From positions 13,392,001 to 13,456,000 of the forward strand of contig NW_026889803.1 of NCBI RefSeq assembly GCF_033153115.1: a stretch of DNA of 64,000 nt. Direction: 5' to 3'. A model generated the notes under the pieces. That model did no database searches, was not told the DNA's origin, and worked only from the letters and a program-made list of their open reading frames with translations. Of the stretch, positions 35,101 to 36,017 are shown piece by piece. Position 1 is the first letter of the stretch; every line of letters starts with the position of its first letter. The DNA comes from Saccostrea echinata. Its lineage: Eukaryota. A program made the position numbers and the translations under genes.

Positions 35101-35331
35101 ACAGACAATATTCACTTGGTTTACACTTTGATCATGAAGTTCATCTTATTGTAAGTACATAGTCTTCATAGGTTATACAAAACCTTCAAAAGGTACGGCG
35201 TGTATCTATAATTATAACAAATCATTACTGTTGTTATTAATCCGACAGTAACGAATCTGGATTGGTCATATTTATTATGGTCTTTGATTTTAATATTTAC
35301 AAAATCCTTTTCATTTTCTGAAACATAGTTA

Positions 35332-36017
35332 TATAATAGTGTTATTATTTGGATGTACTATGCCGAAATAGTAGTCAGGGTTTGACACATGGTGCACGAG
35401 CCGGAGGCGAGTGCACTATGTGTCAAACCCTGACTACTATTTCGGCATAGTACATCCAAACAATAACACTATTATAATTATTATGCTGACTGTTGTTTGC
35501 ATACGACAATTTAATTAAATTCTCAATCCCAAACCTGTTTGCAGACGTTAAATCTAAATGAAAATTTTCTTGAACATTCTTTAATCAAGCGTTATATCAA
35601 AAAGCTTTTATTGACTCCGAAGAACCAGTTCATGTTACGTTGCAATTTTGGTTACTGATAAATTCGATTATTTGTTAGAGAATTTATCTTTAAGATCCTT
35701 ATCAATAATATCAGTCTTTTAGAAATTATATTCATTTATTTCTTGTTTTGTGACAAATGTATAAAAACTACGTTTATATATTTGAAAATACATTCCGTAA
35801 AGTAGCGGTGTTTGTGGCGTAATCGGTAACGCGTTGGACTGACGTTCTCCTGATCGTGAGTTCGATCCCCAGCGTGGGTGCAAATAACATTTTCTCTAGA
35901 AAAGACAGCCGTGCACTATTTCGACATAGTATGCTTACGCTATATAAATCCTTAGAACACTATGCGAAAATAGTTGGGTATTGATTATATAGAGACAAAC
36001 TGACAGGAAGCATAATA
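35332..36017 (+). mobile_element. Non-autonomous hairpin element (Crypton/tyrosine-recombinase type suspected) containing a pseudo-tRNA
   Basis: ~65-bp arm hairpin at 35332-35476, ATAATA direct repeats at both ends, and an internal segment complementary to both termini. Confidence 0.7.
35808..35881 (+). pseudogene. tRNA-like sequence (pseudo-tRNA, Pol III A/B boxes)
   Basis: A box TGGCGTAATCGG, perfect D stem GCGT/ACGC, B box GTTCGATCC at tRNA spacing. Acceptor, anticodon and T stems pair poorly. Confidence 0.7.

Follow-up and report, generated by a model that had tools for sequence, protein, structure and literature searches.

The window analysed here, a 64,000-nt stretch of DNA from Saccostrea echinata, holds at positions 35329 to 36018 (+ strand) a 690-bp non-coding repeat that is probably a non-autonomous transposon of the CryptonA type, moved by a DUF3504 tyrosine recombinase (YR) as a folded single DNA strand. 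It carries a terminal hairpin and an internal segment, here called the splint, that pairs with both ends. For animal CryptonA as a group, the balance tips slightly towards movement in the style of integrons, with splint and hairpin as the recombination site, two extrahelical bases and exchange of a single strand.

The copy in the window belongs to subfamily 1, and the + strand is its hairpin-first strand. It starts TTATATAATAG and stops GCATAATAA, boundaries which are common to 30 copies and were also read from empty paralogous sites. An earlier note on this DNA had set the ends at 35332 or 35333 and at 36017; these were wrong according to the flanks of the 30 copies and the empty sites, and the length of ~690 bp that it gave was borne out. 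The ATAATA direct repeats that it had placed at the ends sit inside the element and do not flank it, and the single ATAATA predicted for empty sites is absent from them. Copies were 97-100% identical (40 scored of 769 candidates in the 923-Mb genome), and the element appears to be a young dispersed family. Its 16-nt right end ACAGGAAGCATAATAA (36003-36018, +), the pairing partner of the splint, had 294 exact matches in the genome, a control pattern 0. An array at G000:C12:13371169-13371812 contained 18 exact copies of this right end in tandem, spaced ~28 bp, and one copy of the element (L104) was a mosaic with a left arm like subfamily 1 and a right arm like subfamily 2. Related elements were also observed in public runs X6, X8 and X11 (organisms B and D), which share its boundaries and splint and have paired arm changes at 35365/35443 and 35356/35452. 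Elsewhere in the window, a single long exon at 57659-59272 (+) with a 537-aa open frame encodes a small-conductance calcium-activated potassium channel, as judged by matches to SK_channel, Ion_trans_2 and CaMBD, and the open frames at 46735-47912 are repetitive and resemble an array of tandem repeats that stays in frame throughout.

No conventional target-site duplication (TSD) accompanied the insertions, as had been claimed; duplications of 5-9 nt were found in 0-1 of 49 flank rows. Empty sites came from two diverged paralog sets (81-87% identical) and from near-identical paralogs of the L062 locus (5/5), and they have one T in common at most. The longest end-to-end inverted matches measured 17 nt and were not terminal at both sides, and the element has neither TSD nor ordinary terminal inverted repeat (TIR), as in CryptonA. 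The 4-6 bp terminal direct repeat with one copy at the empty site, by which fungal and oomycete Cryptons are defined, was not found here. The missing repeat does not speak against CryptonA, because animal CryptonA is reported without one too in the account of PMC3212892. The proposal of a non-autonomous, TSD-less element of ~690 bp from the YR world was supported; the earlier note had missed the dyad at the target, the ACTAT-N6-ATAGT sites at four places within the element and a tRNA-like module for Pol III.

The terminal hairpin occupies 35332-35476 (+). The hairpin with a GGA triloop that had been read from the sequence is real, with 71-nt arms (35332-35402 and 35406-35476) that are 94% complementary around a 3-nt loop; its DNA fold gave z = -19.9, and 0 of 200 shuffles were as good. 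The tip (35397-35411, +), delineated by sequence and fold, has a CGAG/CGAG tandem G.A mismatch around a 3-bp stem and a C-GGA-G triloop. A miRNA gene was considered as well and rejected, Rfam having returned generic hairpin (miRNA) models only, all under gathering score. Where arm pairs differ between the two subfamilies, 6 of 7 differences were double compensatory; the 15 private arm changes, counted with two rearranged copies excluded, were all one-sided. The tip was oriented as in the window in 54 of 57 copies, flipped in 2 and half-flipped in 1. Since such flips reveal arm-to-arm copying, the covariation of the arms is a sign of fold-back or conversion and does not in itself demonstrate selection. 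In L093/L124 and L273, tips were half or fully inverted and a G-T arm mismatch was corrected, which amounts to an exchange of information from arm to arm. At another locus (L245), a subfamily-2 copy harboured the hairpin end of an L060-family Crypton, whose tip is flipped when compared with L060.

The splint lies at 35467-35493 (+, CACTATTATAATTATTATGCTGACTGT) and, from pairing and copies, consists of CACTAT, a 5-nt spacer (35473-35477) and a segment complementary to the right end (35478-35493). It had 62 exact matches in the genome against 1 for a control pattern. Of the 16 nt that close it, 14 are complementary to the right end, with pair probabilities of 0.83-0.97, and no other 16-mer in the window (63,984 in all) pairs with that end so well. 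The left-end spacer TTATATA (35329-35335, +) is 7 nt long; 29 of 30 copies have it, as do 20 of 24 left ends from a second set, and nested insertions at L061 and L062 mark both of its edges. Two of its bases, 35333-35334, stay bulged in the circular DNA fold in silico, and a real head-to-tail junction in the genome (L005/L061) was 2 nt longer than the internal copy. The splint spacer measured 5 nt in 65 of 66 copies; its letters vary (TATAA 41, TGTTA 15, TGTAA 7; n = 66), unlike the constant TTATATA of the left end. Between splint and right end, a GA/GA mismatch was retained in all 46 readable copies. The earlier description of an internal copy of the end-to-end junction holds insofar as the segment is complementary to both ends, and fails insofar as it is 2 nt short of an exact junction. 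Its capacity to align the two ends of the element is supported by the pairing with both; a role as template of the junction finds no support in view of the shortfall, the variable spacer letters and the persistent mismatch. Given its 2-nt shortfall and its variation at positions where the ends are constant, the internal segment is taken as a pairing splint and not as a template of the DIRS type.

The same layout was found on autonomous elements. Among the DUF3504 YR loci of the genome (150 scored of 309), aligned copies delimit elements of 2.0-2.8 kb with one YR ORF, the gene standing in either orientation, and neither a second ORF of at least 250 aa nor RT/RNase H was found in those sharing the layout. 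Their YRs keep R, K, H-x-x-R, H and Y in a 12-ORF alignment, and a structure model (pLDDT 68) matched QRICH1 and Cre, the latter with Z 19.3 (rmsd 3.1, 280 aligned) against Z 13.4 for IntI (2a3v). Assignment of these YRs to CryptonA is by Pfam DUF3504/QRICH1 and the QRICH1 fold match. The YR ORF of locus L041 was identical to a protein labelled as coming from Saccostrea echinata. At one end of these elements stands a long hairpin, and abutting it is a stretch that can pair with the far end; the length of this match was 10-14 nt for 12 families and 13 nt for another three. When 40 additional DUF3504 loci were picked blind to their flanks, a hairpin lay at most 1.4 kb from the ORF in 33 (12 downstream, 23 upstream, 2 both), a few of these hairpins resembling unrelated repeats; other YR loci had one in 1 of 24, downstream side only. 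A far-end match of at least 11 nt was present in 14 of the 23 hairpin-upstream DUF3504 loci. In 80 metagenome loci, a hairpin was detected in 15 of 35 with enough downstream sequence and in 9 of 45 upstream, and 6 of 15 testable loci had a far-end match of 12-21 nt. A second DUF3504 clade (L341-L368) was also noticed, with the ORF directed away from the hairpin and in two frames, likely split by an intron.

The excess of junction over splint was exactly 2 nt in four families (the 690-bp family, L048/L049, L045 and L131), as read from genomic head-to-tail (tandem) junctions. Multi-copy boundary counting gave an excess of 0-7 nt, compatible with 2, with at most 1 row each from F2, F4, G4 and G5; values from boundaries only are spread in this way because targets mimic ends. 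A first base common to element and target was not evident in the L041 and L139 groups.

The cognate autonomous partner of the 690-bp family was not found among the 62 exact splint matches (most examined) or at 40 of the 294 exact right ends. No YR element with the family's own ends occurred among the DUF3504/YR loci examined, which came from searches that each scored a part of their candidates, and 0 of 26 other-YR loci matched the ends of the element. The longer copies with a YR or RT ORF that the earlier note had looked to did not appear among the loci examined; the 2,956-bp copy L130 was rejected as an autonomous copy, its extra sequence being an unrelated insertion without YR. That insertion (L130 528-2825, reverse orientation), placed inside a subfamily-2 copy, is itself a 2.3-kb element; it has terminal inverted repeats, seems to have duplicated a TA and contains a SINE-like repeat. 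Viral contigs yielded no YR relative, and public runs yielded 14 low-share holders with no RNA holder among the matches listed; none of the listed contigs assembled from public runs bridges the right-left junction, which counts neither way. Neither a free circle nor a single-stranded form of the element was observed in the material covered, for which the public runs supplied assembled contigs. Because the cognate YR element was not found, CryptonA membership of the 690-bp element rests on the shared layout, by which it very probably belongs to this type.

Insertions of the element reveal a loose but consistent target. In the window, the host DNA offers a left half-site TAN (here TAG, 35326-35328, +) and, on the other side, a 6-nt spacer starting with T followed by the half-site ATA (36019-36027, +). 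Over 49 rows, the left flank had T at -3 in 36 and A at -2 in 39, and the right flank had T at +1 in 46, A at +7 in 35, T at +8 in 46 and A at +9 in 36; one false row (L062 minus) is contained in these 49 and was left out of later counts. The right-flank pattern was repeated in 34 further distinct flanks (+1 T 32, +7 A 28, +8 T 28, +9 A 29). The consensus is the dyad TAN^TNNNNN-ATA. On the hairpin-first strand, crossover takes place at the 5' edge of its 6-nt spacer, where element and target have a T in common in 46 of 49 rows. Such a spaced dyad, apparently cut at the 5' edge of the spacer, has the geometry of a YR site.

Four dyads also lie within the element itself: ACTAT-N6-ATAGT in the left hairpin arm (35357-35372, +; family D1), which is shaped like the target consensus, and in the right arm (35436-35451, +; D11, I20), a third near the right end (35915-35930, +) and a fourth at 35959-35974 (+; D1, I3). 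These internal dyads would serve as additional YR sites. The third is a used target, as two copies (L256, L262) were inserted exactly into it, with the crossover after CTAT. Two other insertions (L061, L062) had entered a resident left end, at opposite edges of the 7-nt TTATATA and on opposite strands. Four independent insertions in the family's own dyads compare with ~0.0003 expected at random, an expectation that the target preference raises, the cut positions being informative regardless. At the L061 locus (G000:C35:1527000-1536900), the hairpin end of an autonomous Crypton was also seen ~280 bp from a head-to-tail pair of the 690-bp family.

The distribution of spacers bears on the number of strands exchanged. 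The element's own spacer stood at the left end in 29 of 30 copies; at the right end it was found in 1 of 30, a tandem, and in 0 of the 34 further flanks. An element spacer on the left and a target spacer on the right would be expected if only the hairpin-first strand was exchanged. The textbook route for Cryptons supposes instead a double-stranded circle with exchange of both strands, and here the hairpin and splint would be accessory, for binding or bending, or would form a cruciform that aids synapsis. A double-stranded circle is the standing model for Cryptons as set out in PMC13565253 and PMC3212892, the internal dyads resemble duplex YR sites and serve as duplex targets, and the YR model is nearest to Cre. 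However, two-strand exchange across unlike spacers should sometimes put the element spacer at the right end, against the counts above, and the fixed 2-nt shortfall, the 70-bp arms and the strand-biased stable tips across unrelated families would be left unexplained. We consider this route unlikely.

The strand bias was read from the tip loops. In families sharing the layout, these are C-GNA-G (or GNNA) or C-TT(T)-G, usually within a CGAG/CGAG tandem mismatch, and the hairpin-first strand carried them in 17 of 20 families with the hairpin downstream and in 10 of 13 with it upstream; for two of these 10 tips, the script took a neighbouring loop, and the true tips recognised by eye were on the same strand. 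On the other strand, such tips occurred in 1 of 20 and 1 of 13 families, respectively. The bias is not strict: 2 of 57 copies of the element have a flipped tip, and among the metagenome loci, 4 of the 14 inspected by eye carry it on the other strand. It tracks the ends and not the direction of the ORF, which argues against a structure of the mRNA. It is also on the hairpin-first strand that the spacer is cut at its 5' edge. Stable structures of DNA are known to include TT loops as well as G.A pairs in tandem. For d(GNA) loops closed by C-G, PMC3201870 describes an unusual stability in DNA. The nearest-neighbour fold energy was equal on both strands (-133.7 versus -133.4); because computed energies show no strand preference, the asymmetry rests on the special stability of the loops.

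Tip flips also bring in another reading, by which the Crypton hairpin primes its own DNA copying, in the rolling-hairpin manner, and a YR resolves and integrates the product. Flip/flop termini are known from rolling-hairpin replication systems, and the flips and arm-to-arm corrections of L093 and L273 resemble them; the arms are co-corrected between subfamilies, with all 15 private changes one-sided, and a step of this kind could be added to the folded-strand explanation, where it would account for copy gain. Against it, the would-be primer end has unpaired terminal bases and is invariant while the splint varies, flips are also possible by YR inversion or by conversion between the two arm dyads, and no foldback dimer was noticed among the loci examined. 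It is accordingly a distinctly unlikely account of the element.

Movement as a folded single strand, the explanation that we prefer, would proceed in five steps. First, the hairpin-first strand would turn single-stranded, in a replication gap or as a cruciform, and the stable tip would nucleate folding. The splint would then keep both ends adjacent, and the YR would join the right end to the left end, giving a single-stranded circle; this second step is the least constrained of the five. The folded junction would constitute a duplex site in which a 7-nt spacer is set against a 5-nt spacer, leaving two bases extrahelical. The YR would exchange one strand of this site with a double-stranded TAN^TNNNNN-ATA target, for which one base of homology would be required, and replication would finally resolve the junction and fix the insertion. 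We infer folding in vivo, the circle, the one-strand chemistry and the resolution. Excision and copy gain would be the weakest steps, the rise in copy number lying outside the proposed mechanism. The folded end would resemble an attC site in being an imperfect palindrome with extrahelical bases and micro-homology; such traits are present in silico as the 2-nt bulge of the circular fold and as the T shared in 46 of 49 rows.

A putative tRNA-like Pol III module (35808-35893, +) was read from the sequence, with an A box at 35815-35826, a B box at 35860-35868 and TTTT at 35890-35893. ARAGORN called the module at a relaxed threshold only and returned no tRNA at default, and Rfam did not call it. 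It was 75% identical between subfamilies against 57% for the middle of the element, and was retained in 20 of 40 right-end loci. The A and B box pair was found in 0 of 15 autonomous layout-sharing Cryptons. The module might open chromatin or expose the hairpin-first strand.

The hairpin and the inverted copy also invite comparison with non-autonomous Helitron2/Helentron elements moved by RepHel, since the minus strand of the element shows a repeat at the terminus, an inverted copy of it in subterminal position and a hairpin at the 3' side. The rough order of parts, the T at the start and the absence of a TSD are similar to the description in PMC3627910, and the cognate partner was not found, so the enzyme is not proven. 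However, the 3'-ATIR of Helitron2 is found at 20-30 bp from the end and precedes a short hairpin, and here the copy is ~150 nt in and the hairpin reaches the terminus; insertion is into a dyad spaced by 6 nt and not after a T run; and the full layout, the tip motif and the 2-nt excess occur on YR-only elements, which makes a Helitron2 very unlikely. Hardly credible is a non-autonomous retroelement of the DIRS kind, in which the tRNA-like promoter would perhaps drive a transcript for reverse transcription and the internal segment would be an internal complementary region (ICR) templating the circle junction: a segment complementary to both ends does resemble the ICR described in PMC6681497, the Pol III module persists in half of the right-end loci and tRNA-like promoters are described for bivalve non-autonomous LTR elements (PMC10886601), but the splint, with its 2-nt shortfall, variable letters and retained mismatch, cannot serve as template of the junction, the Pol III unit stops at TTTT after ~80 nt, the autonomous relatives have one YR ORF and no A and B box pair, other-YR loci do not match the ends, and the tip bias tracks the ends and not the transcribed strand. 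The link to DIRS elements which the earlier note had drawn is unsupported, as the layout-bearing elements encode a YR only and have no long inverted terminal repeat (ITR) pair.

The ends of animal Cryptons were described as featureless, and the layout offers a rule for their boundaries and for non-autonomous derivatives. It further defines substrates, namely a folded oligonucleotide with a 2-nt bulge, a dyad target with a known cut position and YR ORFs whose catalytic residues are intact, and the folded-strand reading gives a direct test for a transposon class without experimental proof of movement. If this reading is true, single-strand recombination by YRs would not be confined to bacteria, and a third solution would stand beside integrons and CTXphi. 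The splint could then be a DNA-level forerunner of the DIRS ICR, a common origin of the two being possible, and the DIRS ICR as well as the domesticated ZMYM/QRICH1 proteins would gain a mechanistic background. Eulor5/6 entries are annotated as having hairpins. No published account of hairpin-plus-splint Crypton ends was found in a search that covered mainly titles and abstracts and few subscription journals; the termini table of PMC3212892 may bear on the novelty of these ends.

Among known systems, animal CryptonA as described in PMC3212892, PMC13465315 and PMC5753468 resembles the element and its layout-sharing relatives in having a single YR gene in autonomous forms, no TSD or ordinary TIR and many short derivatives. 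Kojima and Jurka found no terminal repeats in animal Cryptons (PMC3212892, section 8), and the mechanism of Cryptons is presented as undemonstrated by experiment, with a double-stranded circle assumed, in a 2026 review (PMC13565253). Unlike CryptonA as so described, the element ends in a hairpin, carries a splint that its junction exceeds by 2 nt and enters a dyad target, and unlike Cryptons with direct repeats of 4-6 bp, its homology with the target is one base. With Helitron2 it shares an asymmetric inverted repeat followed by a hairpin and, as portrayed in PMC3627910, the absence of a TSD, but spacing, hairpin size (71-nt arms), target and enzyme differ. With elements of the DIRS1 type it shares an internal segment complementary to both termini, presumed integration by a YR and, on the description in PMC6681497, no TSD; in contrast, neither RT/RNase H nor a pair of long ITRs was found in layout-sharing elements, and the splint does not act as a template. 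CTXphi, which XerC integrates, is alike in that a folded single strand makes the recombinase site, but according to PMC4792948 it borrows host XerCD and its stem is without extrahelical bases, whereas Cryptons encode their own YR. A working analogue is the integron attC site (PMC4792948): both sites are palindromic but poorly conserved in sequence, both are predicted to leave bases extrahelical, and in both the crossover involves micro-homology and the outcome is that of one-strand exchange. In the recombination of attC with attI by IntI, as reviewed there, a folded single strand is used, one strand is exchanged and resolution takes place through replication. The element differs in being eukaryotic, in forming its site from both ends and an internal splint and in using a loose genomic dyad as the target, and its layout-sharing YRs are structurally nearer to Cre than to IntI (Z 19.3 versus 13.4); it is an analogue of the integron system, not a member.
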